A stretch of 64,000 bases of DNA from a virus: positions 32,001 through 96,000 of IMG/VR virus record IMGVR_UViG_3300021962_008382. The stretch is one strand, 5' to 3'. A program made the position numbers and the translations under genes. Positions 7,363-62,045 of the stretch are shown here, in pieces (within the stretch, counting starts at the first letter, position 1; each line of letters begins with the position of its first letter). The notes under the pieces were generated by a model. That model worked only from the letters and a program-made list of their open reading frames with translations. It searched no databases and was not told where the DNA came from.

Positions 7363-7366
7363 TTAA

Positions 7367-10355: not shown

Positions 10356-10480
10356 CTTTATCACCATATAATGCAGCGTGTAGTCTCTCAATTCGTTCTG
10401 CTGCTATAATCAATAACATCTGCAAAGCAATGTTATCTTGACTTTCACTGGCTTTTTTCAAGGTACTAATCAATTCTTGA

Positions 10481-11376: not shown

Positions 11377-11400
11377 AATGTATCCTCTTATCGTACAGCC

Positions 11401-11509: not shown

Positions 11510-11962
11510 TCACTCATAATCTTTTTTCTTTACGATTTGTTCTACCAGATAATCTGACCAGCTATCTGAATGATGGCTTATCATTAAATCGTAACGTTCA
11601 GGTGGTTCGAATACCCTATTAGTATCTTCGTACCGTCCCTCTGGTATAGTATTAAGCCATACCGTGTAGTCAGGTTTTAAAATATCTCTCATATCAGCTA
11701 AAGGAGCTACCAGGTCTAACAGTATAACATCAGCTTTAGAATTGTTCGCTAGATATAACATCCTATAGCTTTGTCTAAGTCTGCCTTCTCGACTGAAATC
11801 CCAATCGTTGTGATCTTTTCTTACTTCATCAGCATTGAACCAGTCCACCGAGACATATCTCTCTAGTTTTTCTTTTAATTCTCTTGCTAGAGTGGTTTTA
11901 CCTGATCCTGGTAATCCCATAATTAAAACGGTTCTATACGGCATTGGATTCTGATTTTCCAA
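11510..11962 (-). CDS. cysC: Adenylylsulfate (APS) kinase-like protein
   Basis: MGLPGSGKTTLA, NADEVR, DFSREGR, FEPPE. Confidence 0.75.
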   Translation of the reverse strand: MENQNPMPYRTVLIMGLPGSGKTTLARELKEKLERYVSVDWFNADEVRKDHNDWDFSREGRLRQSYRMLYLANNSKADVILLDLVAPLADMRDILKPDYTVWLNTIPEGRYEDTNRVFEPPERYDLMISHHSDSWSDYLVEQIVKKKDYE

Positions 11963-20355: not shown

Positions 20356-20361
20356 ATTATC

Positions 20362-21477: not shown

Positions 21478-21479
21478 AG

Positions 21480-22067: not shown

Positions 22068-22117
22068 TTTTTTTCCTAATAAACGTATATAATATATAGC
22101 TATTAGGATCTTTAGAT

Positions 22118-26263: not shown

Positions 26264-26264
26264 A

Positions 26265-26942: not shown

Positions 26943-26960
26943 ACTTTACTCCTTAGTTAA

Positions 26961-45562: not shown

Positions 45563-45796
45563 CTACTCATGAATAGGGACTATTTGATATCCTATCAGTT
45601 TTTTAGAGTCAAATACTTTTACGAAGTTATTCGTTTTAAAAGTTATATCACTTCTACTTTGAAATAGACTTTCAAGATGAGTTACAGCGTGATCGGGGTC
45701 GGTGAGTGTACCATTGATTGTTAAGTCAGGGGTAAATTCAATCAAGTGCATTCTGCCGTTTCTATCAATCACGTAAATCTTTTTAGTACTGTTCAT
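45563..45796 (-). CDS. Hypothetical protein
   Basis: Last gene of the enzyme cluster. Confidence 0.6.
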   Translation of the reverse strand: MNSTKKIYVIDRNGRMHLIEFTPDLTINGTLTDPDHAVTHLESLFQSRSDITFKTNNFVKVFDSKKLIGYQIVPIHE

Positions 45797-45798
45797 AG

Positions 45799-46722
45799 TT
45801 ACCTCTTAGTATTGATACGTCTAATCATATCTTCAATTGCTAGGTTATTTATTGCAGTATATCTGCTATCATACATCTTAGGTTCTTGAAACTCTTCAAA
45901 TACCTCATCAGTATCATCTATCCAGAATAATAAATCAGGATTTAAAATGCTGCGTTGTTCGTCGAGAGGGCAGACTGAATTAATTAGTACAATATCATCT
46001 GCGGCCGAATTACGAGCCATAGTTAAAAGTCTGTTAGTATGTCGTAACCTACCTCCTTCTGTATAGTCAATATCTTTATGTATTACTCTCTGTTCTCTAC
46101 TATTAAGTACTCTGCACTGATCAAAATGCTTTGTTAGTTCATCTACTACTAGCTTTCTACTCGAACCGGGCTTACCCATTACTAAAACTCTGAAGTGTCT
46201 ATCAGTTATTAATCTATAATATTGAACTAAATTTGAATCCAGTGTATGGAATACCCACGGTCTTATAAAAACACCTTGATTTGGTTCTAGCATTACGTTA
46301 GTGTGTAGATCCCATTCGAATAAGTTTCTGTAGTTAAATTCATAACCCTCTAAAGCAGATTTTGCATCTATTGCCCCGTTTTTATTTTTATGATGAAATA
46401 AATTTAAGGTATTTTTTTCAAGTGCTACTATGAAACACCATTCATTGAGAGAGTTAAAATCTTCGAAATGAATAATGTTGTTGAAGGGTCTACGAAATAT
46501 TCCAGATCTTTTATGATCAATTATTACGCGTTCGCCCAGTACTCTACCTAATATAGGTTCTAACCCGCTTAAAACCATATTAAAATTATCTAGCTCGTAA
46601 CCGTACTCTTTTTCGCTGAACCTAATATCTCTGACTACAGCTGCGCAGCGCTCTACATCTCCAGCTGGAAAAAATCCATCTGCATGGAGCATTTTTACCA
46701 TGGGTCTATTAGATGCTTTCAC
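45799..46722 (-). CDS. Fusion of a 2OG-Fe(II)-oxygenase-like domain and a degenerate APS-kinase-like domain
   Basis: N-half DGFF, IHFED, VFH; C-half aligns by eye to 11510-11962. Confidence 0.6.
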   Translation of the reverse strand: MKASNRPMVKMLHADGFFPAGDVERCAAVVRDIRFSEKEYGYELDNFNMVLSGLEPILGRVLGERVIIDHKRSGIFRRPFNNIIHFEDFNSLNEWCFIVALEKNTLNLFHHKNKNGAIDAKSALEGYEFNYRNLFEWDLHTNVMLEPNQGVFIRPWVFHTLDSNLVQYYRLITDRHFRVLVMGKPGSSRKLVVDELTKHFDQCRVLNSREQRVIHKDIDYTEGGRLRHTNRLLTMARNSAADDIVLINSVCPLDEQRSILNPDLLFWIDDTDEVFEEFQEPKMYDSRYTAINNLAIEDMIRRINTKR

Positions 46723-47491
46723 AAACTTTCTCCGCTATAGATCTGTAAATATCGCTTATTTTACCGGTATTAAAAGCTATAGGTATTCCTTGATCTGCTT
46801 TTATTCTAATTGATGTCTGAAGAGGTATCTTACCGAGAACTGGTACTGAATACTTCTCACTTAAACTATCAGCACCATTTTCCCCAAAAATATAATCGAC
46901 ATTATTACAATGGTTACACAAGTGTCCACTCATATTTTCTACAATACCCACTATCTTAATATTTCTTTGTACGAATAGCTCAATACCTTTCTTACAATCT
47001 AATAATGCTACATCTTGAGGGGTTGTTACGATTACAGCTTTAGCGTGTGGAATAATCTCACAAAGTGATATCTGAATATCACCGGTACCCGGGGGCATGT
47101 CAACTATAAGATAATCCAATTCACCCCATACCGTATTTAATAATAAGTTTTTAAGGGCAACAGTGGCCATTGGTCCTCGCCAACTTACAGCTTGATCATC
47201 TCTAATACTACTAGCTATCGACATTATTTTTAGTTGGTAAGCTTCAAACGGTAAAGTAAATTTTTTATCTTCTGTAAGATTATATGGTTGATTGTTCTCC
47301 AATCCGAACATCATAAACTGACTAGGACCGTATATGTCAGAATCAAACATACCTACTTTAAGATTTAACATAGAAAGAGAAGCTGCAAGATTAGCTGCAA
47401 CAGTACTCTTACCCACACCTCCTTTTCCAGAGGAAACTAAAATAACATTTTTTATTTGCTCTATACCCATATTATTCCGAATAAATGTCAT
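46709..47491 (-). CDS. mrp: Mrp/NBP35 (ApbC) Fe-S cluster carrier ATPase
   Basis: SGKGGVGKST, DIYGPS, WRGPM, DMPPGTGD, ENMS...CNHC. Confidence 0.95.
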   Translation of the reverse strand: MTFIRNNMGIEQIKNVILVSSGKGGVGKSTVAANLAASLSMLNLKVGMFDSDIYGPSQFMMFGLENNQPYNLTEDKKFTLPFEAYQLKIMSIASSIRDDQAVSWRGPMATVALKNLLLNTVWGELDYLIVDMPPGTGDIQISLCEIIPHAKAVIVTTPQDVALLDCKKGIELFVQRNIKIVGIVENMSGHLCNHCNNVDYIFGENGADSLSEKYSVPVLGKIPLQTSIRIKADQGIPIAFNTGKISDIYRSIAEKVCESI

Positions 47492-48407
47492 GGTTAATAA
47501 TATTACACCAATGTTTCAACTCAGTTTTTGAGAAAGACATTATACCATCGTTTATTCTATCTGTAAATTCGCCGTCTACACCTCCGAGCCTGATAGGGTT
47601 ATATACAGGCTGTCTATCTTCTTTCCTAAAAATCCTGAAATGATCTGGATATGTTACATTTTTCTCGAAAGTTGAGCCCATGAATACAGCACCGGGCTTA
47701 TCAAACGCGCGCGCCATATGCTGACCAACCGAATCACACCCTACAAAATAATCACACTCACTAATTAAAGCCATAAACATTCGAAGATCAGTATTAAGAT
47801 TTTGAAAATCTACCGATATATTATCGCCCGGATGTCTAAGTTCCTTAGGACCGAAAAAGAATATTAAACTATCTTTGCTAATATTTTCTATCATATAGAG
47901 ATAGTCGTCGCAATCTAAGCTCCGATGAGAAGTATCATAAGGCCTATTATTATTAATCTGCATTGAACTGCCGTAAGGCTGAAATACAATTACTTTACTC
48001 TTATTTTTATTCGTTTTAAACTCCTGTATTATTCTTTTAACCGAATTTTTTTCGTATGTACTTAGATATAGATTAGGCTTGGTAAGATCTGAATGATCTT
48101 CGGTCTTATTTATTTCTCGATCAAAAGCTTCAGTAAGAGAAATCTTCTGATTATAATAATCATAAAGATAGTAAGGCTCTGGGCACACAACAATATTAGG
48201 CTTTACATAATTATCAAATATATCTTTCTGATGTATACCTATAGTTCGCTGTTGAAGTAGAGGATGACTCCAGTACAGACTCTCCCACCCATGAACAAGC
48301 ACCTTAAAGTTATTACCCGGGTTGAGACGATGAAATTTCTCTAAAGCGGGTATTGCCGTTATAACCCTACCTGCACCACCGTTAATTATAAAAGTTGTAT
48401 TAGTCAT
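47472..48407 (-). CDS. GT9-like glycosyltransferase
   Basis: GGAGRVI.AIPAL, CDYFVGCDSVGQHMARAFDKP. Confidence 0.8.
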   Translation of the reverse strand: MTNTTFIINGGAGRVITAIPALEKFHRLNPGNNFKVLVHGWESLYWSHPLLQQRTIGIHQKDIFDNYVKPNIVVCPEPYYLYDYYNQKISLTEAFDREINKTEDHSDLTKPNLYLSTYEKNSVKRIIQEFKTNKNKSKVIVFQPYGSSMQINNNRPYDTSHRSLDCDDYLYMIENISKDSLIFFFGPKELRHPGDNISVDFQNLNTDLRMFMALISECDYFVGCDSVGQHMARAFDKPGAVFMGSTFEKNVTYPDHFRIFRKEDRQPVYNPIRLGGVDGEFTDRINDGIMSFSKTELKHWCNIINHDIYSE

Positions 48408-49065
48408 TTATTAACATATTCCAGGGGGCAATGATACCCTCACAATGTATACTTTCTACTTCCATTAATTTAGATTTATCAATATACATGAACATAGCTT
48501 CTTCAATAGTTATGCCTTGAACTAAGTGTTCATAAAATGATTTGGATATTAAATTACCCATATTATCAATTAGCGTACCACATACGGACCAAAGTCTTGT
48601 GTGTAGGGATATAGCATTATAATCGTTAGTATGGCGAGTTTTAAATACATAACAGTCGTGTAGATTATTATAAAAATTAATATCGAATTGATCACTTAGT
48701 TTATATCGACCAGATATCTTAAAGATTCTCTTTGGAGCTAATTTATTTAGTATTATTAGATCTAAAGCTACTAGTAACATATATGCTTCGCCAGCACCTT
48801 TTGCACCTGAATTGTTTAGCTCTTTACAAGGTGTTCTACTTCCAATATCAATAAAGAAGGTTACATTTTTTGAAAGCTCATTATACCATTTATTTTCAAG
48901 AGGAAAAGAAGAATTATCTATTAAGATAATTATTGCAGCTGGATCTTTTTTCTTTATAGAATCTATAGTTTCGAGTGTTTGTAGATACCGATCACTTATC
49001 GAAATATGTCCCCATGGTGTGTTTATAGTAGATGTGATAATAAAGATATTATTTAGTATACTCAT
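48400..49065 (-). CDS. Glycosyltransferase-associated hypothetical protein
   Basis: IITS.IN, R..QT.ETI.SI, IDNS, FKISGRY; start adjusted to MSILN. Confidence 0.6.
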   Translation of the reverse strand: MSILNNIFIITSTINTPWGHISISDRYLQTLETIDSIKKKDPAAIIILIDNSSFPLENKWYNELSKNVTFFIDIGSRTPCKELNNSGAKGAGEAYMLLVALDLIILNKLAPKRIFKISGRYKLSDQFDINFYNNLHDCYVFKTRHTNDYNAISLHTRLWSVCGTLIDNMGNLISKSFYEHLVQGITIEEAMFMYIDKSKLMEVESIHCEGIIAPWNMLIND

Positions 49066-49831
49066 CCCACCAGGTTTCCCATTTAATAAAAGGGTCTTTC
49101 TGCTGATCAAACTGTAAATGTAATGCTAGACTTGGTATAGGATTAAATCTTATCGCTCGATTATCTAACCAAATATTCCATATGGTGTTTGATTCTTCAT
49201 AATGTTCTGTTCTAGGTTTAAGATAATTCCCGTTATATTTAAGTGCCAAGGTCTCAAACAGCCCCCAGTTAGATTTAAATATCTGAGGTGTAGTGAATAA
49301 GACATTTGTAGTAAAAACACCGGTACGCCAATGCCTGTTAGAGCCATGTACAATAAAATCCGTTCTACTTGGGGGATTATATTCACTTGGTTCATCAAAA
49401 GGGTACAATACTATATCATCTCGCTTTAATCTATCAGAGAAGGTATAAAAACTATCAATCATTTCTTGAATAGCAGAAGGCTGGTGCAGATAGTCATCTT
49501 CAACGGAGTATACTAAATCTGCATGACTATCTCTACATAGCAACCATTGTTGATGCGCTGAATAATTGTACCCCTGCTCCGGTAAAGATATAAACTCACC
49601 GTTAACTTCTTCTATTATTTGTTTTATCTTACTAACAGTTTCCTCAGAGGAACTATCATCTAATACTGTTAATTTGATAAGTACATCGCGTACATTTTTT
49701 ATACTATTTACAAGCGATCTAGTACAGCCTACAACAATATCATTTTTTGGAATATCACAGTATCTTACTCTCCAATCTACGTGAACGTTAGTTCTGTCAC
49801 AGGTTCTTAAGATAATATCTAATGTTTTCAT
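49049..49831 (-). CDS. GT2-like glycosyltransferase
   Basis: VLDDSS, VYSVEDDYLH. Confidence 0.75.
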   Translation of the reverse strand: MKTLDIILRTCDRTNVHVDWRVRYCDIPKNDIVVGCTRSLVNSIKNVRDVLIKLTVLDDSSSEETVSKIKQIIEEVNGEFISLPEQGYNYSAHQQWLLCRDSHADLVYSVEDDYLHQPSAIQEMIDSFYTFSDRLKRDDIVLYPFDEPSEYNPPSRTDFIVHGSNRHWRTGVFTTNVLFTTPQIFKSNWGLFETLALKYNGNYLKPRTEHYEESNTIWNIWLDNRAIRFNPIPSLALHLQFDQQKDPFIKWETWWDEYTK

Positions 49832-49849
49832 GACTTTATTATTTCAACA

Positions 49850-50620
49850 TTATTTACGCCAAACTTCTAAACCATGATACTTATTTAAAATGTCCGGGGG
49901 TAGGATAAAATCCCTAGCCTTGAATTCTACTCGCTTTCTTACATCATGTAGCTTTATACCGATTTCCTGATCATACTCATCCCAACTTGCTTCTACATTG
50001 TTAAAATCATGCTGAAAATAAGGCTCATCAATAAAATTATACAGGGCTTTTAACATTTGCTCAGGTTGTTTAGCTAGTTGCTCATACTCTAAGATAAAAA
50101 GTAAATTTTTTTCTAGACCGGTTATTGCTTGCTTAATACCCACATAAGGAAAACCTACTACACCGGCTTCTGAAAAAAGGGATTCTGCTCTGGAATAAAC
50201 CGAACCTGAAAGACCCCCGGTTACTGTATTAGTTGAGAAAGGATTGCGTCTGTGCGCTAGTTCAAAACTATCCAAGACCCAGTTAATATCTCTAACACAT
50301 ACAATAAATTTAGATTTAGGGTAAAGATCTTTTATAACACCCGTTAAATATGTCCAAGCGCGATTAGTATTAAAAATAATCGGCTTATCAACATCTTGAT
50401 AGAAACCGTCAAACAACCCGGCAACTATATTTTTTCTTCGCTGTACAGGAACCTCTGCTTTCGACCCGGGGCTATCTTGTGTAGCCTCAATTACCCCTTT
50501 TACTAAATTAGCTAAAGGGTCGGTGATAGAGGAATGAAAGCGGGGGTTCTGTCTTAGTATTGAGGTAAGAAGGGTTGACCCTGATCGCGGTAAGCCAGTT
50601 ATAAAATGATATTGTTTCAT
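49850..50620 (-). CDS. PAPS-dependent sulfotransferase
   Basis: 5'-PSB GLPRSGSTLL, 3'-PB VRD...VLDS, YE.L...P. Confidence 0.9.
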   Translation of the reverse strand: MKQYHFITGLPRSGSTLLTSILRQNPRFHSSITDPLANLVKGVIEATQDSPGSKAEVPVQRRKNIVAGLFDGFYQDVDKPIIFNTNRAWTYLTGVIKDLYPKSKFIVCVRDINWVLDSFELAHRRNPFSTNTVTGGLSGSVYSRAESLFSEAGVVGFPYVGIKQAITGLEKNLLFILEYEQLAKQPEQMLKALYNFIDEPYFQHDFNNVEASWDEYDQEIGIKLHDVRKRVEFKARDFILPPDILNKYHGLEVWRK

Positions 50621-51972
50621 AATTTACTCATTAATTTAAGTACTTCTTGTTTAACATTATTAAGCGGTGTGTGCCAATCTCTCACTTTAGTTTGTTTGTG
50701 AACTTGAAAATTGTCACCATACCAAGGGGTAGTGGTACCTTTATGCGAAGTGGACCAGATATAGTATTCAGCAATAGGTACAACAACAAAGCATGTCTTT
50801 CCTATCGCTCCTGCTGCATGTACTAAACTGGTGCAGCTGCTTACAATACAATCCATTTGATCAATAAAATCTAAAGTATCCTCCCAAGTATCAATTCTAC
50901 TGCCTAAGTCAATACAACCTGGGTGACCATCTTCTTTATCAATGTAATAAACCTCTGCACCCTCAGGTATATAGCTGAGCAACAACTCAAGAGGTATCTT
51001 GCGGTATTCATCTTGGGAAAAATATGGATTACCGGAACATTTAATACCTATCTTAAATTTGTCACTATTGATTTTATTTTTAGGATTCCTTACCGGGATA
51101 AGATAAGGTTTTCGCCAAAGCTTATCCTCAGTTAAATTAAGATACCCAGGCAAGCTCATCATAGGAGTCCATAGCTGTCTTCTATCTATAGAGTATGTTT
51201 CAGTTATTACTTCATATCCGTTGCGACGAAACAGACTAACTGTATCCTCTCTATACTTTGACCAAGTAGAATATAATATTGGTCTCATACCTAGATCTTT
51301 AATATGATCAAAGAATCTTATGTTAATTATCTCGTCACCAATACCTCCCTCACCATCAACGTAAATAATTCTGCCTGGTTGAATTGTACCGGACCATTTA
51401 GTCATACCTAAAGCATCTTCAAATCTTCCGTTCTTAGGTTTAATAGAGCCCATGAACGCCAGTACACCTTCAGCGATCCTTCCTTCTCTTAATACCTTTC
51501 CGCTTAAAGCATTCTTCATATCATCAGCTTTTTCAGGGTGTTTTTCAGCCAAAGAAAGTAACAAATCTTCGGAAGTTTTTCTATCACCCATTAAAGCTAT
51601 ATTAAATGCTCTTTGTGTTTGAGTTTCAAAATCATCTGGGGTTAATTTTAAATTAAGATCGATATAGAAAAGAGCTTTTTCCGGCTGATTCAATGCATTA
51701 TAGGCTTTATATAAATTAGCGCGAGCAATGTAAAGTTGATCGGCGTTTTCAGCTCTAGAGTAAGCAGCCTCTGCACATTTCAAGTAAAGAGGTCTATGCT
51801 CTGCTTTTAGGGAAAGATATCCAAGTGTATCAAAATCTTCTACTGAATCTGCACGCTTAAAGTAATGTTCAAGCATTTCAAAAACGATTTTTCGTTTTTC
51901 ATTACCAAGCAAATCCATTACAACAGTAGTTAAATCTTGGATCTTAAATTCTTTATTCTTTAATGACGACAA
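50617..51972 (-). CDS. TPR-repeat plus GT9-like glycosyltransferase
   Basis: Helical TPR-like N-half; EGGIGD.I...RF, MSLP, EDT...I..MD.IVS.CTSLVH.AGA.GK. Confidence 0.85.
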   Translation of the reverse strand: MSSLKNKEFKIQDLTTVVMDLLGNEKRKIVFEMLEHYFKRADSVEDFDTLGYLSLKAEHRPLYLKCAEAAYSRAENADQLYIARANLYKAYNALNQPEKALFYIDLNLKLTPDDFETQTQRAFNIALMGDRKTSEDLLLSLAEKHPEKADDMKNALSGKVLREGRIAEGVLAFMGSIKPKNGRFEDALGMTKWSGTIQPGRIIYVDGEGGIGDEIINIRFFDHIKDLGMRPILYSTWSKYREDTVSLFRRNGYEVITETYSIDRRQLWTPMMSLPGYLNLTEDKLWRKPYLIPVRNPKNKINSDKFKIGIKCSGNPYFSQDEYRKIPLELLLSYIPEGAEVYYIDKEDGHPGCIDLGSRIDTWEDTLDFIDQMDCIVSSCTSLVHAAGAIGKTCFVVVPIAEYYIWSTSHKGTTTPWYGDNFQVHKQTKVRDWHTPLNNVKQEVLKLMSKL

Positions 51973-52510
51973 GTTTCACCCACAATTCTTCAATAATATT
52001 ATTATGTTGTTTTAAATAAGCTTCTACTTCATTTCGCGGCATGCCTACAAACTGATCTTTAAATTCTTTAGAAGGTATGTAATTCCAGTCTAAAATCTCA
52101 AAATCAACACCAAAATAAAAACCTAATCTCGAAGAAGCAGCGCCCTGCTCTTCGCACAGTCTGTTGTGTTTTTTACTAAATAAAAGCAGACCACCAACAG
52201 TTACTGGTCTACGATGAGTGGGATCGTCGTAGAAGTAATCGTGTCGATGATGGGGTACACGTATATCGATAGTAGCACCGTGCTTGCAGACTCGATACAG
52301 TTCTTGCAAGCAATGGAAGTAGCCCTCTCCTAGATGCTCTAATACATGATGGGCTACAACTACTTCGACGGAATTGTCCGGGAAGGGGAAAGGATCTTTT
52401 TCTAAATTAAAACAATAATCTGGATTTTCTCTAGCATCATAATCACAGGTTACGAAACCTTCAATTTTTGTTGACCCTGCACCAATATTAATCTTCATAA
52501 TTTTATCCAA
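51953..52510 (-). CDS. Class I SAM-dependent methyltransferase-like protein
   Basis: NIGAG, PFPDNSV, HVLEHL, ELYRVCK.G, DPTH. Confidence 0.85.
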   Translation of the reverse strand: MDKIMKINIGAGSTKIEGFVTCDYDARENPDYCFNLEKDPFPFPDNSVEVVVAHHVLEHLGEGYFHCLQELYRVCKHGATIDIRVPHHRHDYFYDDPTHRRPVTVGGLLLFSKKHNRLCEEQGAASSRLGFYFGVDFEILDWNYIPSKEFKDQFVGMPRNEVEAYLKQHNNIIEELWVKLVVIKE

Positions 52511-52553
52511 GTAAAAATAACAAATTAAATTATATAGTATATTTTATTAAAAA

Positions 52554-53903
52554 TCAATACTTTTGAATACCAAGTGAGTGTAATCTTCCAGCACTTACTT
52601 CGTACCAGCCAACAGAACCCCCTACGACAGAAACGGGCGATGATCTTGATGATGACTGGTTTTCCCCTAACATACCGTCGGCGTTATTACCCCAAGCCCA
52701 AGCTGTTCCATTTCGTCTTACTGCTAACGAATGACCGTATTTACCTGCGCTTATTTGACACCAGTCAGTAAATCCTCCTACCACGGAAACCGGTGATGTT
52801 CTATCAGTAGCACTATTATCCCCTAACTGACCATTGGCATTACGACCCCAGGCCAGTAGGCTACTATTACCTACAATACCTAGCGAATGACAATACCCAG
52901 CACTTACTTGACTCCAATTACTAAAGCCTCCTATGATAGATACAGGTGATGAGCGGCTAGTAGTTGTATTATCGCCTATCTGTCCGCAGTTATTCCTTCC
53001 CCACCCCCATGCTGTACCGTTCTGTCTTACGGCTAATGAATGACCACCGCCAGCACTTATTTGACACCAGTCGGTGAAGCCACCCACAACTGATACAGGC
53101 GAGGATTTGCTAACAGTAGTATTATCACCTAGTTGACCGTCAGTAGCACAACCCCAACTCCACACCGTACCATTAGTTCTTAGTGCAAGGGAAAACTTAA
53201 ATCCGGCACTTACTTGACACCAGTCAGTAAACCCTCCTACCACAGAAACCGGGGATGATCGTGGTATATTAGTACTGTTATTACCTAACACACCATAATT
53301 ACCAAACCCCCATGCCCAAAGAGTACCATTCTCTCTTAAACCTAAGGAATGACAGAATGCAGATACCTGACACCAATCGGTAAAACCTCCTACTACGGAG
53401 ACTGGGGAGGATCTATGTAAATTACAATTATCACCTAAATTTCCGCTACCATACTGCCCCCAACTCCATGCGGTGCCGTTATTTCTAACTGCCAATGAAT
53501 GATTAACACCGGCGCTTATATCATACCAGTCAGTAAAACCACCTGCAACCGAAACGGGGGAGGATCTATCATTAACATCGCCCAACCCGAGTTTGCCTCG
53601 ATAATTGTCACCCCACCCCCACGCTTGACCTGACGTACAGTCCTGTCGTAAAATACGGTTGTCTAGAGACATCCAACAACCAGCACCGGCTACTACCGGT
53701 ATACAGAGAGATTGTACAAATATTACTGTACCTACTGAAATACTATTAGTAGCTTGATCAGGTAAATCACCCGTATCAGACACTACTATTGAACGATTAG
53801 TAGTAGCATTGCTAGTTTCAGCAGCGAGTACAACCATCTCGGTTACTTCAGAGTTGGCTGTTAAATTTGTTATACAAGTTTGAATTTCACTGAGTGTTGG
53901 CAT
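52554..53903 (-). CDS. RCC1-repeat beta-propeller protein 6
   Basis: Seven blades of the form WG.N..G.LGDN....SSPVSVVGGFTDWCQVSAG..HSL. Confidence 0.93.
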   Translation of the reverse strand: MPTLSEIQTCITNLTANSEVTEMVVLAAETSNATTNRSIVVSDTGDLPDQATNSISVGTVIFVQSLCIPVVAGAGCWMSLDNRILRQDCTSGQAWGWGDNYRGKLGLGDVNDRSSPVSVAGGFTDWYDISAGVNHSLAVRNNGTAWSWGQYGSGNLGDNCNLHRSSPVSVVGGFTDWCQVSAFCHSLGLRENGTLWAWGFGNYGVLGNNSTNIPRSSPVSVVGGFTDWCQVSAGFKFSLALRTNGTVWSWGCATDGQLGDNTTVSKSSPVSVVGGFTDWCQISAGGGHSLAVRQNGTAWGWGRNNCGQIGDNTTTSRSSPVSIIGGFSNWSQVSAGYCHSLGIVGNSSLLAWGRNANGQLGDNSATDRTSPVSVVGGFTDWCQISAGKYGHSLAVRRNGTAWAWGNNADGMLGENQSSSRSSPVSVVGGSVGWYEVSAGRLHSLGIQKY

Positions 53904-53904
53904 T

Positions 53905-55260
53905 TTATATACTCTGCAGTGGGACTGTTGCTATTGTTCTGCCTAGTGAGAATCTTCGACCCGCACTAACTTGGGCCCAGTTAGTAAAACCACCTACAAC
54001 AGAAACAGGAGATGATAAATCTCCTGTAGCATTATTCCCCAACTGACCGTAATTATTATCCCCCCAAGCCCAAGCTGTACCATTGGTTCGAACCCCCAGG
54101 GAATGCCGAAAGCCTGCTGAAGCCCGACACCAATCGGTGAAACCACCTACTATTGAAGCAGGGGTAATACAACAATAATTACCCCCTTTATTAACACCTA
54201 TCTGACCGTAACGCGTGGATCCCCATCCCCAGGCAGTCCCGTTTGATCTTACCCCTAACGTAAAATTATTACCCGCGCTAACCTGAATCCAATCAGTATA
54301 TGTTGACACCTGGGTAGGAGATGAGGCACTAGTGTTACCCCCGTTACCTATCTGCCAGTAATTATTACGCCCCCAGGCAAAGGCAGTCCCATTTGTTCTT
54401 ACTGCTGCTGAATGCGTATGGCCAGCGCTAATATTACACCAGTCAGTAAATCCTCCTACCACAGAAACCGGTGATGATCTATTAGTAGCACTATTATCAC
54501 CTAATCGACCCGAACCGTTATACCCCCAAGCCCAGAGGGTCCCGCCTGATCTTAATGCTAAAGAATACTTGTAACCAGAACTTATTTGACACCAGTCGGT
54601 GAAGCCACCCACAACTGATACAGGCGAGGATTTGCTAACAGTAGTATTATCACCTAGTTGACCACTTTCGTTACTACCCCAAGCCCAAGCCGAACCATTA
54701 GTTCTTACTGCTAAAGTAGAATTTCTCCCGGCGGCCGCTTGACACCAGTCAGTAAATCCTACAACAGAAACCGGTGATGATCTGTTAGTAGTACAATTAT
54801 CACCTAATCGCCCCTGGCCATTGCATCCCCAAGCATACAACACACCATTAGTTCTTAACCCTAAAGAGTGTTGATAACCGGCTGACACCTGACGCCAATC
54901 GGTAAAGCCTCCTAATACGGAAATTGGCGAAGATTTATTTACAGTAGTATTATCTCCTAACACACCATTATAGTTACGTCCCCATACATATGCCTGACAG
55001 CTTACCGCATGCGAAAAGGTTGAAAAATCGCTGTTCCACGCCCCTTGAACAGCGTAGTAATATTTGTTTTCATCATCCACATATACCATTCTACCATTAT
55101 AAGTAGTAGCGTTAGGTAGATTGGTGCAAGTAGAAACTTTAAAAACTGGCTGGCACAGAATAGTAAGTGCGTTTTCTGCTTGGCAGCACTGCAAAGAGGT
55201 TAAGCCTCCTGCGCATAGCAGGCTGCATATTTTATCTATAAGCGGTTGAGTATTAATCAT
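53905..55260 (-). CDS. RCC1-repeat beta-propeller protein 5
   Basis: Same repeat. Confidence 0.93.
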   Translation of the reverse strand: MINTQPLIDKICSLLCAGGLTSLQCCQAENALTILCQPVFKVSTCTNLPNATTYNGRMVYVDDENKYYYAVQGAWNSDFSTFSHAVSCQAYVWGRNYNGVLGDNTTVNKSSPISVLGGFTDWRQVSAGYQHSLGLRTNGVLYAWGCNGQGRLGDNCTTNRSSPVSVVGFTDWCQAAAGRNSTLAVRTNGSAWAWGSNESGQLGDNTTVSKSSPVSVVGGFTDWCQISSGYKYSLALRSGGTLWAWGYNGSGRLGDNSATNRSSPVSVVGGFTDWCNISAGHTHSAAVRTNGTAFAWGRNNYWQIGNGGNTSASSPTQVSTYTDWIQVSAGNNFTLGVRSNGTAWGWGSTRYGQIGVNKGGNYCCITPASIVGGFTDWCRASAGFRHSLGVRTNGTAWAWGDNNYGQLGNNATGDLSSPVSVVGGFTNWAQVSAGRRFSLGRTIATVPLQSI

Positions 55261-55262
55261 AT

Positions 55263-56666
55263 TTAATCGAATGTAATTCCTACGCTAAGTCTACCACCGG
55301 TGGTTACTTGAAACCAGTTATTGATACCTACAACTGATACAGGTGAGGACCTGCTGGTATTATTGTTTGTACCGAGTTGGCCGTAGTCATTATTTCCCCA
55401 CGCCCAGGCAGTCCCCCCTTGTTGTACAGCTATATTATATCGGCAGCCGGCAGATACCTGACCCCAGTTAGTAAATCCCCCTACCACGGAAACCGGGGAT
55501 GAGCGATTCGTCCCGTATGGACTGCAATTATTTCCTAACTGACCCGAACCACTTGCTCCCCATGTCCAAAGGGTACCGTTAGTTCTCACTGCTGCTGAAT
55601 GATCATAGCCAGCGCTAATATTACACCAGTCAGTAAAACCACCTACCACTGTAACAGGGGATAAGCAACTTACTGTGTTATTATTACCCAGCCTACCTGA
55701 ACTCCCATACCCCCATGCATAAAGGACCCCGGTTTGAATTAAACCTAAAGAATGCTGGGCACCTGCTGATACCTGACACCAGTTAAAAATCCCCCCTGTT
55801 ACGGAAACAGGGGATCGACGACTAGTTGTCGTACCATCGCCTAACTGCCCTCGATCGTTTAACCCCCACCCCCATGCTGTACCGTTCTGTCTTACGGCTA
55901 ATGTGGTGTTTCTGTTGGAGGTACCGGTTCTGTTACCTGAAATTTGACACCAATCGGTAAACCCACCTACTACTGAAACTGGCGATGATTTATTAGCATT
56001 AGTATTGTCCCCCAATGCCCCCTGATAGTTATACCCCCATCCCCAAGCAGTACCGTTCTGCCGTATACCAACAGAAAATCTATGCCCTGCACTAATATTA
56101 CACCAGTCAGTGAATCCTCCTACTACAGATACAGGAGAGGATCTACTAGTAGTACAATTGTTACCTAATCTACCAGCTTCTCCAGACCCCCAAGCATAAA
56201 GGACCCCATTATTACGTAAACCAAGCGTATGCTGACAACCTGCGCTCACTTGACCCCAATCGGTAAATCCTCCTATTGTGGAAACAGGTGACGACCTCGA
56301 TTCTGTACAATTATCTCCGAACTGCCCTACACTATTACAACCCCACGCCCAAACTGCATTATTGTATTGCGCGTCTGTTCTTAAAACTGTACCATCCAGC
56401 GCAAGCCAAGTATTACCTGAACTTACAGCAATAATACCTAACGATTCAACATAATATACCATTCCATCGGGTAATATATTACTACCATAATAAAGATACG
56501 GTAAACTATACTTATTTTCAGCAGTGATAATACTGATGTCGTTTAAGTTGTTACCAGACAAAGCATACGCTAGAATATCGTCAGGGGTATAATCCACCAG
56601 ATTATACGGTCTGCATAATTGAGTATTTAATTTAGATAATATACAGCTAGCATTTACCGTTGGCAT
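55263..56666 (-). CDS. RCC1-repeat beta-propeller protein 4
   Basis: Same repeat. Confidence 0.93.
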   Translation of the reverse strand: MPTVNASCILSKLNTQLCRPYNLVDYTPDDILAYALSGNNLNDISIITAENKYSLPYLYYGSNILPDGMVYYVESLGIIAVSSGNTWLALDGTVLRTDAQYNNAVWAWGCNSVGQFGDNCTESRSSPVSTIGGFTDWGQVSAGCQHTLGLRNNGVLYAWGSGEAGRLGNNCTTSRSSPVSVVGGFTDWCNISAGHRFSVGIRQNGTAWGWGYNYQGALGDNTNANKSSPVSVVGGFTDWCQISGNRTGTSNRNTTLAVRQNGTAWGWGLNDRGQLGDGTTTSRRSPVSVTGGIFNWCQVSAGAQHSLGLIQTGVLYAWGYGSSGRLGNNNTVSCLSPVTVVGGFTDWCNISAGYDHSAAVRTNGTLWTWGASGSGQLGNNCSPYGTNRSSPVSVVGGFTNWGQVSAGCRYNIAVQQGGTAWAWGNNDYGQLGTNNNTSRSSPVSVVGINNWFQVTTGGRLSVGITFD

Positions 56667-56668
56667 AA

Positions 56669-57292
56669 TTACTCAACTATGGTGATGGCCAACAATTCTT
56701 CTTTAGTATCAGCAGTATCTATTTGATCTGAGATATTTAACTCCCAATCAAAGCAAGATTGAATATACTGATTACCTGCTTGTACAACTAATCCTAGCTC
56801 TTGCTTGGTCAAAGTTAGCCAACCTTCAGGAAATTTCCAATTTACAGTATCACTATTAGCCATTAGTAAGTATTTTTGAACAAAGATATCACGCGCCCCT
56901 CGATTGGTATCAATAGTCACTGTCTTATCTTGAATTGTTGCTGTTGTACCTAAAACTTCTCTTTTATATCTTTCTTGAGCTGCAACTTGTTTTAAATTGT
57001 ATCTCATAGAATCAATCGGTGAGTCATGAACTTCGTAATTAGCTATGACCACATCATCAGTAATGTTCCAAAGCGGGCCATAGTAGTATTCTACAAGCGG
57101 ATTCATTTCCGGTCTAACTTCATCTACACTCATGATTTTAGCATGATCATTAATTATTAATGGTAGGGTATCTGGGGCAGTTCTTGGTAGGGGGTACTGT
57201 ATACCTTGACGCTCTAATGTACCTTGAAACATGCCGCGATTCCAATTCATTGGACCCACCAGCACTCTATTGTCATAAATTACCGCATACAT
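56669..57292 (-). CDS. DUF4376-like tail-associated protein
   Basis: AA.ERY.RE..G, IDT.R, VNWK, YIQ.CF.WE, A.T.EEL.AI. Confidence 0.75.
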   Translation of the reverse strand: MYAVIYDNRVLVGPMNWNRGMFQGTLERQGIQYPLPRTAPDTLPLIINDHAKIMSVDEVRPEMNPLVEYYYGPLWNITDDVVIANYEVHDSPIDSMRYNLKQVAAQERYKREVLGTTATIQDKTVTIDTNRGARDIFVQKYLLMANSDTVNWKFPEGWLTLTKQELGLVVQAGNQYIQSCFDWELNISDQIDTADTKEELLAITIVE

Positions 57293-57327
57293 GTTTTTAT
57301 CTCCTGATATTATTTATTTAGTGTTTA

Positions 57328-58704
57328 TTATGATATTCGTGTGCTTCTTATTGCTAGCGCATGGTAGTAATGTTGGGGGTCGCTGATGATCGCCCAGTCA
57401 GTAAAACCACCTACAACAGAGACTGGCGAGGATTGGTTGCTAGTACCATTATCTCCTAGACTACCATTATATGACTCCCCCCATGACCATACAGTACCGT
57501 TTTGTCTTAACCCCATACTTTTTCTATAGCCAGCGGAAACTTGACACCAATCGGTAAAGCCCCCTACTACGGAAACAGGGGATGATCTATTAGTAGTACA
57601 ATTATTACCTAGCCTACCTGAGGTTCCGCAACCCCATGACCATGCTGTTCCATTAGTTCTCACCGCTAAAGCATGCGTACTGGCGCTGACTTGACACCAA
57701 TCAGTAAAACCACCTACAACAGACACGGGCGATCTCTTACTTACTATTGTATTATCACCTAATCTACCAGCCGTATTATCTCCCCATGCATAAAGAGTAC
57801 CGTCTTGTCTTACAGCGGCAGTAAAATAACCTGTGCTCACCTGACACCAATTAGTAAATCCCCCTACTACTGATACCGGCGATGATTTATTAACATTAGT
57901 ATTGTCCCCTAATTGACCCTGACCGTTATATCCCCACGACCAAAGTGTACCATCTTGTTTTACACCATGACCTCTTCCGGGTCCGCTCGGTGTCGCGGCA
58001 ACTTGACACCAATCGGTAAAGCCCCCTACAACGGAAACAGGGGATAAAACAACAGCACCGGAACCGGTATTATTACCTAAACCCCCATTATCACGATAAC
58101 CCCATCCCCAAGCAGTACCGTTAGATCTTACACCTAGACTGGTAAAATTACCAGCAGAAACCTGACACCAGTCTGTAAACCCCCCGACCACTGATACGGG
58201 CGAGGATTTAGCTACTTCAGTATTATCCCCTAGTCTACCTCCGACACCGTTACCCCATCCCCATGCTGTACCGTTAGTTCTGACTGCTAGCGTGTGGTTA
58301 TAACCAGCGCTTACTTGACACCAGCTAGTAACTCCTCCCACTACTGATACCGGTGATGATTTACTAACAACAGTATTATCTCCTAACTGACCGCAATTAT
58401 TTCTACCCCAAGCATATGCAACATTATTATAAACAGGATCAGGTGAAACTTGTGACCAAACATTACCGTTACTAAAATATAAACGATCTACATTCTGCAC
58501 AAAGTACAGCCAACCTTCATGTACTGAAACGTTGGGTAAATTGCAGGTTTGATCTATTGTTCTAATTTGACCCATGTTGAAAGTTTGAGCTGCCTTAGCA
58601 AGCTCAATATAGTACATGGTAGAATTAACGTTATCCGCTGCAGCCAATGTATTGGCACTCTCAACAGCAGATTGAAACTGTACTTGTAGGTTGTTTATGT
58701 TCAT
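57328..58704 (-). CDS. RCC1-repeat beta-propeller protein 3
   Basis: Same repeat. Confidence 0.93.
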   Translation of the reverse strand: MNINNLQVQFQSAVESANTLAAADNVNSTMYYIELAKAAQTFNMGQIRTIDQTCNLPNVSVHEGWLYFVQNVDRLYFSNGNVWSQVSPDPVYNNVAYAWGRNNCGQLGDNTVVSKSSPVSVVGGVTSWCQVSAGYNHTLAVRTNGTAWGWGNGVGGRLGDNTEVAKSSPVSVVGGFTDWCQVSAGNFTSLGVRSNGTAWGWGYRDNGGLGNNTGSGAVVLSPVSVVGGFTDWCQVAATPSGPGRGHGVKQDGTLWSWGYNGQGQLGDNTNVNKSSPVSVVGGFTNWCQVSTGYFTAAVRQDGTLYAWGDNTAGRLGDNTIVSKRSPVSVVGGFTDWCQVSASTHALAVRTNGTAWSWGCGTSGRLGNNCTTNRSSPVSVVGGFTDWCQVSAGYRKSMGLRQNGTVWSWGESYNGSLGDNGTSNQSSPVSVVGGFTDWAIISDPQHYYHALAIRSTRIS

Positions 58705-60059
58705 GAGTCTAAATTATACCTTATACCTAGCACATGGCCAAAACCTGCTGAAACTTGACACCAATTAGTTAATCCCCCTATTACTGATACAGGGGATGAT
58801 CTACTGAAGGCTTGAAGCCCTTCACCTAATTGACCGTAGTTGTTTTGACCCCATCCCCAAATTGTACCGTTAGTTCTTACAGCCGCAGCATTACCAACAC
58901 CTGCATCTGCCTGACACCAATCTGTAAACCCACCTACTACAGAAACAGGTGATGAACTGTCAGTAGTACTATTATTACCTAATCGACCCGAACCGTTATA
59001 CCCCCAAGCCCAGAGGGTCCCGCCTGATCTTAATCCAATACTAAAACTATTTCCACCTGATACTTGACACCAATCTGTAAATCCCCCTACAACAGATACG
59101 GGGGAGGATTTAGAAACAGTAGAATTATCACCTAATCTTCCGTTACTACCGTTACCCCAAGCCCATGCAGTACCATTTTGTCTTACCCCTAGGGAATGTT
59201 GGGACTGACTGAGTGCAGCGCTTACCTGACACCAATCAGTAAACCCTCCTACAACAGATACAGGAGAGGTTCTAGTAGTAGTACTATTATCACCTAAGTT
59301 ACCATTACTATTATTTCCCCAACCCCAAGCAGTACCGTTTTGTCTTACAGCTAAAGCAAAATCGGACCCCCCTGATACCTGACACCAGTTAGTAAATCCC
59401 CCTACTACAGAAACAGGGGATGATTTACTTACTGTAGTACTATCACCTATTTGACCTTGAGCGTTGTAACCCCAAGCCCAAAGAGTTCCGTTTTGTCTTA
59501 CACCTAAAGAGAATCTTATATTATTACCAAAAAACCCCCCGGCACTTATCTGACACCAATCTGTAAAACCACCTACAACCGATACAGGAGATGATCTAGA
59601 TGTTGTAGAATTATCACCTAAACTACCGTAAAAGTTTTGACCCCAGCCCCAAGCAGTACCATTGGTACGCACGGCAAGTGAATTACGTGTTCCTGCTGAA
59701 ACTTGACACCAATCTATAAAATTACCAACAACTGACACTGGAGAAGTTCTTTGTGTAACTGTATTATCACCCAATTGACCGGCATTATTAAACCCCCAAG
59801 CATACATAAATCCTTGAGGTATTTGATTGATAGTATCTATTGATACCCAATTAGTACTATTACTATAATAAATTCCCAACCCTCTAACATAATACATTTT
59901 ACCAGTAGATGCAGATGCCGCAGGTAAATCCACTATAGCATTTACGTGATTTACTTGACCTGCTTTCATTAAGTCAACTGACTTAGTTACAGCTAACTGA
60001 TTATAGGTATTATCGCTAACTTTAGATTGAAGCTTTAAAATTAAATTAGTAATATCCAT
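58701..60059 (-). CDS. RCC1-repeat beta-propeller protein 2
   Basis: Same repeat. Confidence 0.93.
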   Translation of the reverse strand: MDITNLILKLQSKVSDNTYNQLAVTKSVDLMKAGQVNHVNAIVDLPAASASTGKMYYVRGLGIYYSNSTNWVSIDTINQIPQGFMYAWGFNNAGQLGDNTVTQRTSPVSVVGNFIDWCQVSAGTRNSLAVRTNGTAWGWGQNFYGSLGDNSTTSRSSPVSVVGGFTDWCQISAGGFFGNNIRFSLGVRQNGTLWAWGYNAQGQIGDSTTVSKSSPVSVVGGFTNWCQVSGGSDFALAVRQNGTAWGWGNNSNGNLGDNSTTTRTSPVSVVGGFTDWCQVSAALSQSQHSLGVRQNGTAWAWGNGSNGRLGDNSTVSKSSPVSVVGGFTDWCQVSGGNSFSIGLRSGGTLWAWGYNGSGRLGNNSTTDSSSPVSVVGGFTDWCQADAGVGNAAAVRTNGTIWGWGQNNYGQLGEGLQAFSRSSPVSVIGGLTNWCQVSAGFGHVLGIRYNLDS

Positions 60060-60062
60060 AGT

Positions 60063-61406
60063 TTAAAATCCGCAACTCTTTCTTATAGCCAAGCTAGAAT
60101 TTCCCCCGCCTGATACATCCCACCAATCTGTATACCCGCCTACCACAGATACCGGTGACGACCGATTAGTAGTACAATTATTACCTAAGGAGTCGCCGTT
60201 CCCCCAACTCCAAAGCGTACCATTTTGTCTTAATCCTAGCGAATGTGTAGAACCAGCACTTATTTTACACCAATCGGTAAATCCCCCTACTACCGATACT
60301 GGTGAAGGTTGACTACCAATGGCACTATTATTACCTAATTGTCCGCTTGCACCTCGTCCCCAACCCCAAGCCGTTCCGTTTTGTCGTACACCTAATGAAA
60401 ACATGTACCCGCCGGATAATTGACACCAATTTGTAAATCCTCCTATTACTGATACAGGGGACGATCTAGTATATCCTGCGCCGCTGTAGCCATCGCCTAA
60501 TTGACCGTAATAATTGTTGCCCCATGCCCAAGCTGTGCCTCCTGTTCTTATCGCTAAAGAATGTTTAAACCCGGTCGATAGCTGGCACCAATCGGTAAAC
60601 CCTCCTACTACGGAGACTGGTGAACTTGTAGATGATGTACTATTATTCCCCAACTGACCACAGTCATTAAACCCCCAAGCCCAAATTGTTCCATTAGTTC
60701 TTAAACCTAGGGAATGAAATCCTCCTGCAGATACACGAGACCAGTCAGAAAATGCAATGATAGAAACAGGAGATGTTCTATTAGTAGTACTATTATTTCC
60801 TAATCTTCCGCTGCCACCGCAACCCCAAGCCCAAGCCGTGCTATTGGTTCGTACCCCCAGGGAATGTTCTCTTCCTGCTGAAACCTGACACCAATCTGTA
60901 AACCCACCTACTACCGAAACAGGTGATGATTTATTTTCCGTTGTATTATCCCCTAATCTACCACACGTATTATTTCCCCACGCCCTTGCAGTACCGTTAG
61001 AACGAACGGCTAATGAATGACAAAGACCGGATGAAACTTGACACCAATCTGTAAAGATTCCTACAACAGATACGGGTGAAGATTTATTTACCGTAGTATT
61101 GTCTCCTAACTGCCCATCGCTATTATTTCCCCACGACCAAACAGCGCTCGTTATACCGCTTACATCGCTTGTCCAAGCAGCCCCGGTGCTAAAATAGTAC
61201 TTAGATTCATTTGTAACGTATACAAATCTACCAGTATTACAAGAAGCGGTAGGCAATGAGGCTTGACATGCAACACTAAAAACAGTACATTTATCATTAA
61301 GCTGACATTCAGAACCAGTTAACTGAAGTATCTCTAATGCAGTTAAATTAGATCGAGTAGCTGCTTGATTTATACAGTTGATTAAATCATTAACACCAAA
61401 AGTCAT
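60063..61406 (-). CDS. RCC1-repeat beta-propeller protein 1
   Basis: Same repeat. Confidence 0.93.
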   Translation of the reverse strand: MTFGVNDLINCINQAATRSNLTALEILQLTGSECQLNDKCTVFSVACQASLPTASCNTGRFVYVTNESKYYFSTGAAWTSDVSGITSAVWSWGNNSDGQLGDNTTVNKSSPVSVVGIFTDWCQVSSGLCHSLAVRSNGTARAWGNNTCGRLGDNTTENKSSPVSVVGGFTDWCQVSAGREHSLGVRTNSTAWAWGCGGSGRLGNNSTTNRTSPVSIIAFSDWSRVSAGGFHSLGLRTNGTIWAWGFNDCGQLGNNSTSSTSSPVSVVGGFTDWCQLSTGFKHSLAIRTGGTAWAWGNNYYGQLGDGYSGAGYTRSSPVSVIGGFTNWCQLSGGYMFSLGVRQNGTAWGWGRGASGQLGNNSAIGSQPSPVSVVGGFTDWCKISAGSTHSLGLRQNGTLWSWGNGDSLGNNCTTNRSSPVSVVGGYTDWWDVSGGGNSSLAIRKSCGF

Positions 61407-61409: not shown

Positions 61410-62045
61410 TTACCCCAGTGCTAATATAGATAACGTTCTCGCGTATTGATCGGTAACTCCTTCTGCCCCACCACCAGTTGCTGTGGAGTTAATTCTACCA
61501 TTAGCGTCGATAGTTATACTTTGTCCGGCTGTTAGAGCTGCTACAACTCTAGTATTAGTAAAATATAGATTACCGGATTCAGCTATGTTAGCCGTTGAAA
61601 GAACAACTGTACCGGTAAGACCGTTAACGGAATCGACTGCACCACCACCAGTTGCTGTGGAGTTAATTCTTCCATTGGCATCGATAGTGATACTCTGGCC
61701 AGCTGATAGCGCAGCAATAGACCTAGCATTGGTAAAATATAAATTACCGGACTCGGCTATGTTAGCAGTAGTTAAGGTGACTGTACCAGTAAGATCGTTA
61801 ACGGAAACGACATTAGCTGTAGAGCTAAAGACACCGGTACCGCTTGAATAGCTTAAACTTCCGCTAGCGCTAAATTTATTTCTTATATTAGCAGTATCAA
61901 CTTCAAGATTAATTCTGGCGTTGGCAGCATCTTCTGCACCTGTACCACCGTAAGATACCGAGACAACATCCCCGGATAAAAATTCCCCTAAAGCGGTTAC
62001 ATTTGAACCGTCATAAATTGCTTTTACCGGAATACGGGTAGTCAT
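61410..62045 (-). CDS. Tail-fibre-like repeat protein
   Basis: YGGTGA..A..AR.NL and SVNGLTGTV.L.TANIAESGNLYFTN repeats. Confidence 0.8.
   Translation of the reverse strand: MTTRIPVKAIYDGSNVTALGEFLSGDVVSVSYGGTGAEDAANARINLEVDTANIRNKFSASGSLSYSSGTGVFSSTANVVSVNDLTGTVTLTTANIAESGNLYFTNARSIAALSAGQSITIDANGRINSTATGGGAVDSVNGLTGTVVLSTANIAESGNLYFTNTRVVAALTAGQSITIDANGRINSTATGGGAEGVTDQYARTLSILALG

Follow-up and report, generated by a model that had tools for sequence, protein, structure and literature searches.

Why does a phage carry a tandem array of RCC1 propeller genes directly ahead of genes for sugar-, methyl- and sulfate-transferring enzymes, and could the propellers be what those enzymes act on? 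The question is raised by a locus in the window, a stretch of 64,000 nucleotides running from base 32001 to base 96000 of a contig from an uncultured aquatic T4-like phage; the contig is 158.9 kb long, with an overlap of ~280 bp between its ends. Matching DNA is present in estuary, marine and freshwater metagenomes, and no RNA dataset was listed among those with matching sequence. A sequence-only reading of the locus had proposed an assembly line that builds a sulfated or methylated glycan on acceptor sites repeated in the propeller blades. The co-occurrence of the two gene blocks and the types of enzyme encoded fit protein decoration, and this part of the proposal stood, whereas its acceptor logic, founded on Cys and NGT, did not hold in the form proposed. 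From the genes and the structural models we think it reasonably likely that these enzymes build a sulfated or methylated glycan on the phage's own fibre tips.

An RCC1 and glycosyltransferase module shared by phages

The expectation that the two blocks travel together across phages was borne out. An RCC1 gene lay upstream in 21/21 loci that encode a GT9-family glycosyltransferase (GT) with a TPR domain (TPR-GT9) and have visible upstream DNA, in about a dozen lineages. When the search was anchored on RCC1, TPR-GT9 was found in 41/53 new dereplicated phage loci (32/40 of those with at least 3 kb downstream) and near none of the 40 bacterial control RCC1 loci. The pairing also occurs in the cultured cyanophages S-SRM01 and BUCT-ZZ01, in T4-like phages and in one complete 37-kb phage, and in several lineages the enzyme genes are interleaved with the RCC1 genes. 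Sulfotransferase and TPR-GT9 are fused in L026, L030, L033 and L034, which are small non-T4 phages, and in BUCT-ZZ01 (L114:8272-9993) the methyltransferase and TPR-GT9 models both match one open reading frame of 574 amino acids (aa). TPR-GT9, for which more than 600 homologue clusters were found, is the core partner of phage RCC1 arrays; the module core consists of RCC1, TPR-GT9, sulfotransferase and often methyltransferase, with GT2, a stand-alone GT9-family transferase (GT9b), the Mrp ATPase and an oxygenase as accessories. Our literature search found no paper describing this module, which is real and widespread and appears to be uncharacterised. Its genes in the window, from upstream to downstream, together with their neighbours and one distant gene, are as follows.

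63251-63745 and 61410-62045, minus strand: upstream structural context genes flanking the fibre-like gene 62045..63250
62045..63250, minus strand: fibre-like gene with an Mtd_N domain (PF18454, E 6e-11) and no Cys; shares repeats with 61410-62045
60063..61406, minus strand: RCC1 propeller 1 (Pfam RCC1), 447 aa, 16 Cys; N-terminal anchor of ~85 aa plus 7 blades
58701..60059, minus strand: RCC1 propeller 2 (Pfam RCC1; model pLDDT 93), 452 aa, 7 Cys, all in W-C-Q
57328..58704, minus strand: RCC1 propeller 3 (Pfam RCC1), 458 aa, 10 Cys
56669..57292, minus strand: DUF4376 tail-fibre-associated protein inside the RCC1 array (PF14301, E 5e-10; PHROG 10508 and 1348, 'tail fiber protein')
55263..56666, minus strand: RCC1 propeller 4 (Pfam RCC1), 467 aa, 13 Cys
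53905..55260, minus strand: RCC1 propeller 5 (Pfam RCC1), 451 aa, 15 Cys
52554..53903, minus strand: RCC1 propeller 6 (Pfam RCC1), 449 aa, 13 Cys
51953..52510, minus strand: S-adenosylmethionine-dependent methyltransferase (PF08241, E 4e-7)
50617..51972, minus strand: TPR-GT9 glycosyltransferase (fold search; model pLDDT 91.8)
49850..50620, minus strand: sulfotransferase (PF13469, E 2.5e-15) with an intact loop, GLPRSGST, for binding 3'-phosphoadenosine 5'-phosphosulfate (PAPS)
49049..49831, minus strand: GT2/GT-A-like glycosyltransferase, weak assignment (PF00535, E 0.005, below cut-off)
48400..49110, minus strand: conserved protein with a possible GT-A fold; conserved in relatives and S-SRM01
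47472..48407, minus strand: GT9b, stand-alone GT9-family transferase (phrog_8954; PF01075 in 17/40 family members, WaaF E 0.008)
46709..47491, minus strand: Mrp/ApbC Fe-S carrier ATPase domain (PF10609, 298 bits)
45799..46722, minus strand: fusion of a putative 2-oxoglutarate (2OG)-Fe(II) oxygenase (residues 1-172) and a degenerate adenosine 5'-phosphosulfate (APS)-kinase-like domain (176-292); motifs and weak double-stranded beta-helix (DSBH) leads
45563..45796, minus strand: conserved hypothetical protein of 77 aa, in close relatives only
44570..45523, minus strand: gp13-like neck gene, the downstream boundary, placed by its position before gp14-gp18-like genes
11510..11962, minus strand: stand-alone APS-kinase-like paralog with an intact P-loop (PF01583, E 1.4e-9, over cut-off); candidate for PAPS supply

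From 63745 to 44570 every gene lies on the minus strand, with overlaps or intergenic gaps of at most 43 bp, in agreement with the claimed layout of six RCC1 genes running into closely spaced enzyme genes. The claimed order had missed the DUF4376 gene, which divides the array 3+3. Sequence recognition and position support the gp13 boundary, for which Pfam gave no match. Among the enzyme calls, methyltransferase, sulfotransferase and Mrp scored over Pfam cut-offs and TPR-GT9 was recovered by fold search, while GT2 and GT9b gave weak matches below cut-off and the GT-like gene at 48400-49110 had no family match in Pfam, PHROG or NCBIfam. A sequence with one mismatch to the late promoter, AATAAATA, lies 26 nt upstream of the DUF4376 gene and 31 nt upstream of the gp13-like gene. 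Exact TATAAATA copies stand before major structural genes and the RCC1/enzyme block holds one-mismatch copies only; the frequency of the late-promoter octamer in the window is not above chance. Elsewhere, the GC content is 45-47% in a run of small open reading frames at 1-11400 compared with 33-38% in the replication genes, and a tRNA-like sequence lies just upstream of the window, outside it.

All six RCC1 genes matched PF00415 over cut-off with 6-7 Pfam repeats each, and propeller 2 was modelled (pLDDT 93) as two N-terminal helices, a small beta-domain and seven blades, with TM scores of 0.84-0.91 to the RCC1-like domains of UVR8 and HERC, so the call of six propeller genes was confirmed. 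The N-terminal anchors matched the gene at the same position in other phages at 49-69% and other genes at 13-40%, whereas the propeller domains matched between phages at 55-66%, equally across all paralogues. We infer from these comparisons that each RCC1 protein joins a position-specific anchor to an interchangeable head, an arrangement that may be likened to receptor-binding tips. The search with the anchors gave only scattered PHROG tail matches, the search of Protein Data Bank (PDB) sequences with the DUF4376 protein gave nothing significant, and a lead to Pam3 gp24/gp25 was not supported.

The model of TPR-GT9 comprises TPR helices at residues 1-180 and a GT9 domain at 181-451. In structure comparison the latter has the GT-B fold of the WaaC/WaaF type (WaaF, Z 16.4; TibC, Z 15.8; WaaC, Z 14.5); the PDB sequence search gave nothing significant, and the family alignment contains one invariant Cys. 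TPR domains generally point to protein clients. The sulfotransferase has the 5'-phosphosulfate-binding loop in addition to its Pfam score. Mrp contains all of its motifs (deviant Walker A, WRGP, DxPPGT and a C-terminal CxxC) and is ~50% identical to proteobacterial ApbC; it scored 291 bits against the full-length ApbC model, below the cut-off of 348, because it is shorter. It is sporadic across loci, always immediately after GT9b where seen, and we rejected it as a core part since only a minority of loci carry it. In two large phages, L134 and L150, the same block is accompanied by a carbamoyltransferase and a small Cys-rich protein, with Mrp directly after GT9b. A 6.4-kb contig (L063) in a metagenome-assembled genome of Terrimicrobiaceae carries a phage-type Cys-rich RCC1 array; it is probably a mis-binned phage contig, unusable as host evidence.

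The oxygenase half of the fusion carries an H85-x-E87...H159 triad that is kept in 9/10, with only weak leads to PhyH, 2OG-FeII_Oxy_3 and DUF6445 (DSBH); a PDB sequence search with the whole fusion gave nothing significant, and its two domains are separate genes in many relatives. The proposal of a working APS kinase in this fusion was not upheld: its Walker A motif reads GKPGSSRK, in which the P-loop lysine of the GxxGxGKT/S pattern is lost, and PF01583 matches only the paralog at 11510-11962, which is 37% identical to the fused domain and lies among small genes, 34 kb away from the cluster. Either the host or this stand-alone kinase could supply PAPS.

The gene content, folds, linkage, fusions and motif statistics suggest a mobile fibre-tip module, for which virion location, substrate, donor, acceptor residue and purpose would be as follows. 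Each RCC1 gene would encode a virion appendage with a fixed anchor and an interchangeable propeller head, and the soluble enzymes encoded next to it would modify the propellers in the host cytoplasm, before or during assembly. TPR-GT9 would bind the propeller and add the first sugar, most plausibly to Ser/Thr; this sugar would probably be a heptose, with host ADP-heptose as the donor. Chain extension would fall to the GT-A enzymes, and capping to the sulfotransferase and methyltransferase. GT9b may act as a second transferase that is optional and accompanies surface Cys. The phage would probably end up with a negatively charged coat, and so with changed adhesion, receptor range or stability.

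Candidate acceptor residues, GT9b and cysteine-dense fibres

The three motifs said to recur in nearly every blade were overstated for N(T/S)T..SS, which occurs in 10 of 42 blades, compared with 28 for WC(Q/N) and 25 for NGT; the element that hardly varies is S/T-S-P, P being preceded by S/T in 97% of parsed blades. Mean Cys content is 2.7% in the propellers (1.5-3.6%), and the median for the genome is 0.9%; N-x-S/T occurs at 3.1-4.9 per 100 aa against 0.8 for the genome, with sequons at 2.3x the shuffled expectation (z=10). Recent duplication was not supported in this genome as the source of the motif repetition, given that synonymous identity among six perfect-match blades was 0.36, the same as between genomes; relatives' arrays show partial homogenisation (0.48-0.66).

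We compared phage RCC1s with GC-matched bacterial RCC1 controls. Ser/Thr made up 22.9% of the former and 18.6% of the latter, and N-x-S/T occurred at 3.25 per 100 aa in cluster-linked propellers and at 1.47 in the controls, with observed/expected ratios of 2.2 and 1.1, so GC bias was not supported as the source of the Asn enrichment. S/T preceded the conserved Pro in 98% of cases in cluster-linked propellers and in 46% in controls. NGT, proposed as the repeated acceptor, turned out to be the ordinary RCC1 D/N-G-T turn, which stays Asp in many cluster-bearing lineages. It was rejected as a general acceptor: N occupies the turn in 84% of GT9b-positive, 32% of GT9b-negative and 11% of bacterial blades, blades of lineage L061 have N at the turn without T, and N/(N+D) before a +2 S/T is 0.61 compared with 0.68 elsewhere in the same proteins, and so is not raised.

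A suggested link between Cys content and the cluster did not hold up. Among 78 dereplicated loci with fibre-like sequence, Cys-dense fibres (defined by a stretch of 5 or more Cys per 100 aa) were present at 8/23 TPR-GT9 loci and 25/55 others (p=0.46), and many cluster-bearing RCC1 arrays are Cys-poor. Cys density instead followed GT9b: 30/38 loci with GT9b had a Cys-dense fibre, compared with 3/40 without it (Fisher p 6e-11), p-values here ignoring relatedness and the loci having been partly retrieved with GT9b itself. The association was also seen among loci with sulfotransferase or TPR-GT9 (27/32 with GT9b, 0/15 others) and among gp13-containing loci (9/11 and 1/22). In a prospective check, 8/9 GT9b loci from cultured or single-cell phages had Cys-dense neighbours (P-SSM2, S-SSM7, S-CAM1, Sf-FS3, two marine single-cell viruses, Vibrio D505 and Aeromonas HJ05), and whole-record searches found no GT9b in low-Cys complete genomes. 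RCC1-anchored replication was not significant (p=0.12), with too few GT9b loci; two of its five GT9b matches scored a weak 25-31 bits, and for its only WC-type array GT9b lay immediately beyond the edge of the locus.

GT9b, identified by sequence only, forms a family of 2825 homologue clusters, whose alignment shows no invariant Cys and no N-terminal extension. Among its Cys-rich partners are RCC1s, beta-roll repeats and other scaffolds, and such partners occur with both deep branches of the GT9b tree. The Cys-rich proteins of P-SSM2 and S-SSM7 include PSSM2_304/306 and SSSM7_114-116. In the cultured cyanophages P-SSM2 (L351, 4976-13513), L352, L353 and L358, tandem proteins of 260-360 aa with 8-12% Cys stand directly before GT9b, a carbamoyltransferase and the ADP-heptose pathway, whereas Vibrio phage D505 (L354:8729-13999) and Aeromonas phage HJ05 (L357:6300-7979) have a lone GT9b relative beside a tail protein with a Cys-dense segment. 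In the window, a glycosyltransferase-like gene at 30752-31621 (minus strand) lies just downstream of the gp23 region; a similar protein is encoded beside GT9b elsewhere (e.g. L019:2731-3393).

Two explanations of this link were considered. The cysteines may be structural or metal-binding, in disulfides or in Fe-S clusters loaded by Mrp, with no relation to glycosylation and with GT9b a mere lineage marker; we regard this as a serious possibility, somewhat short of an even chance, and one that is compatible with decoration of the fibre tips. An intact Mrp is present in the operon and Mrp was seen only in Cys-rich lineages, but most Cys-rich loci lack it. In the model, W-C opens the same strand of every blade; outside W-C, however, orthologues share only 17/43 Cys positions, a pattern easier to reconcile with a surface property than with fixed disulfides. 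In GT9b-positive blades, moreover, Cys stands where other RCC1s have polar, variable positions (91%, 21%, 16%), and at 0% at the site where other RCC1s carry Cys, exposure being deduced from column composition. The structural explanation also draws on exceptions in both directions: GT9b without a Cys-dense fibre in G061 (a complete genome) and G052, and Gly-rich Cys-dense proteins without GT9b in G060 and S-SRM01. Against it, the GT9b link spans RCC1, beta-roll and other scaffolds on both deep branches. The Gly-rich proteins of 340-360 aa with 9 Cys per 100 aa, seen from L380:5258 and from L338:3173 (S-SRM01) onward in genomes without GT9b, are possibly gp38-like adhesin tips.

The other explanation, advanced tentatively and in our view rather doubtful, is that the GT9b proteins form a large family of phage enzymes that S-glycosylate cysteine with little dependence on the surrounding sequence, so that fibres of unrelated folds would accumulate surface Cys. 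These residues would first be glycosylated and later sulfated or carbamoylated, and the virion would gain a thio-linked glycan coat in addition to the TPR-GT9 modification of the RCC1 blades. The glycocin S-glycosyltransferases of the SunS/GccA type likewise link sugar to Cys, yet they belong to the GT2 family and act on a Cys of one short bacteriocin peptide. We know of no GT9 S-transferase and no virion S-glycan.

Proposed fibre-tip decoration and its alternatives

Several observations weigh against decoration of the fibre tips. S-S-P could not be upheld as an enzyme-linked acceptor: it is near 100% in phage RCC1 loci with or without a nearby TPR-GT9, so it cannot be tied to the enzyme and may be ancestral. 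About one-fifth of RCC1 loci with enough flank lack TPR-GT9, and the control RCC1 loci were mostly bacterial, so that an effect of phage ancestry cannot be told apart from one of the cluster. An exact late promoter ahead of the enzyme block is missing from this genome and present in 3/17 relatives. No heptose pathway was found in this genome, and host donor supply would thus be needed. The best structural match of TPR-GT9, WaaF, is equally a lipopolysaccharide (LPS) enzyme. Finally, tail-fibre regions are insertion hot spots, where adjacency can be incidental.

One could envisage that the enzymes remodel the host surface polysaccharide or LPS, in superinfection exclusion or grazing defence, the RCC1s being receptor-binding proteins that fit this surface. 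The LPS heptosyltransferases make up family GT9, WaaF is the top structural match, and cyanophage GT clusters have been read as makers of outer polysaccharide (Iyer et al. 2021, PMC7824862; likewise PMC12801897). On the other side, the TPR domain points to a protein client, and GT9b co-varies with the amino-acid composition of neighbouring fibres, which is unexpected for an LPS enzyme. In many relatives the cluster has ADP-heptose pathway genes next to it, alongside either GT9, and in marine cyanophages such genes come after GT9b; given that the LPS of marine Synechococcus is without heptose (PMC4515613), the heptose-pathway cyanophages that infect it argue against an LPS target there. We consider host-surface remodelling unlikely.

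It is quite improbable, in our judgement, that the blocks simply sit side by side in a hypervariable structural island and are inherited together, the propellers not being direct substrates of the enzymes. Such an origin would agree with the wide variation in gene content past the sulfotransferase and with RCC1 phage loci that lack the enzymes, and SSP-type RCC1s may form one clade. RCC1 and TPR-GT9 nevertheless stay adjacent or interleaved at 24-30% enzyme identity across unrelated phage types, gene fusions join the enzymes, and G006, a complete phage with a bacterial-type RCC1, has no TPR-GT9. Modification of phage DNA or synthesis of a small metabolite is very improbable: DNA-modifying phage glycosyltransferases are well known, and 7-deazaguanine-type genes and a second sugar-enzyme cluster were recognised by sequence elsewhere in the genome, but in all relatives examined the block lies in the morphogenesis region, after fibre and not replication genes.

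The 7-deazaguanine-type genes, at 19837-27797 (minus strand), comprise QueD-, QueC-, QueF-, FolE- and QueE-like genes and a TGT-like gene, which suggest 7-deazaguanine DNA modification; the QueE-like protein is an alternative client for Mrp. The second sugar-enzyme cluster is outside the window, at G000:2020-16000, where several GTs, an epimerase, a DegT-like aminotransferase, an FkbM-like methyltransferase and an acetyltransferase lie beside replication genes, followed by a TonB-receptor-like gene.

Known systems and significance

The statement that no characterised example exists was too broad for the general idea, in view of mycobacteriophage virion glycosylation, TibC-type heptosylation and a 2010 prediction of tail-collar sulfation, while the specific module does appear to be uncharacterised. 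It is not a bacterial autotransporter heptosyltransferase (BAHT) system and not GT41. Like TibC/TibA and AAH/AIDA-I, it places the gene for a GT9-fold transferase beside that for a repetitive Ser/Thr-rich surface protein, with ADP-heptose genes adjacent in relatives and absent from this genome, and TPR-GT9 superimposes on TibC (Z 15.8, rmsd 3.2 over 240 residues), which heptosylates Ser (PMC4358343; PDB 4RAP). The N-terminal beta-barrel of the BAHTs (TibC/AAH) is absent, however, being replaced by TPR helices in TPR-GT9 and by no extension in GT9b; both lack the four-Cys iron finger, the phage protein is a propeller and not a beta-helix adhesin, and sulfo-, methyl- and GT-A enzymes are added. 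With the O-GlcNAc and O-fucose transferases of GT41 (OGT, SPY), a family that also includes HMW1C, the phage enzyme shares the TPR plus GT-B architecture, and these were the top Foldseek matches of TPR-GT9. Over the whole chain, however, they align badly (rmsd 11-17; for OGT, Z 11.2 at rmsd 16, compared with GT9 Z 14.5-16.4 at rmsd 3.2-3.8), the catalytic domain superimposes on GT9 enzymes, and the GT41 catalytic domain PF13844 gave no match in the Pfam search.

Mycobacteriophage-encoded glycosyltransferases decorate virion proteins, namely the capsid and tail-tube C-termini (Freeman et al. 2023, as related in PMC12619734). As would be expected of a system of that type, the phage GT genes here are linked to structural genes; the presumed targets, however, are the RCC1 tips, and the enzymes are GT9 transferases with predicted sulfation. 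Iyer et al. (2010) predicted operons of sulfotransferase, oxygenase, methyltransferase and PAPS genes beside tail-collar or collagen-like proteins as the proposed substrate (PMC2938197); these contain no RCC1 or GT9, and the chemistry proposed for them was hydroxylation with subsequent sulfation. Just outside the window, at G000:98704-102545, two DUF6065-like genes, a second sulfotransferase-like gene and a 2OG-Fe(II) oxygenase gene beside a Pro-Gly-Asn repeat fibre protein resemble those operons. Phage phAPEC6 also has tandem RCC1-like paralogues, six distant members of which are listed in the mass spectrometry table of its virions; unlike the propellers described here, to which they are 16-18% identical, they were proposed as inner-body proteins, and no modification cluster was reported (PMC7247149).

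If the phage does decorate its own fibre tips, virion glycosylation and sulfation would be common in aquatic phages, beyond a few mycobacteriophages, given the more than 600 homologue clusters of TPR-GT9 and more than 2,800 of GT9b. It could also account for the GT, sulfotransferase and heptose clusters of cyanophage tail regions, usually read as host-LPS genes. Both pairings are carried by cultured phages: RCC1 with TPR-GT9 by S-SRM01 and BUCT-ZZ01, and GT9b with proteins of 8-12% Cys by P-SSM2, S-SSM7 and S-CAM1. A GT9 enzyme that S-glycosylates folded proteins would, if real, represent new chemistry and a useful tool.

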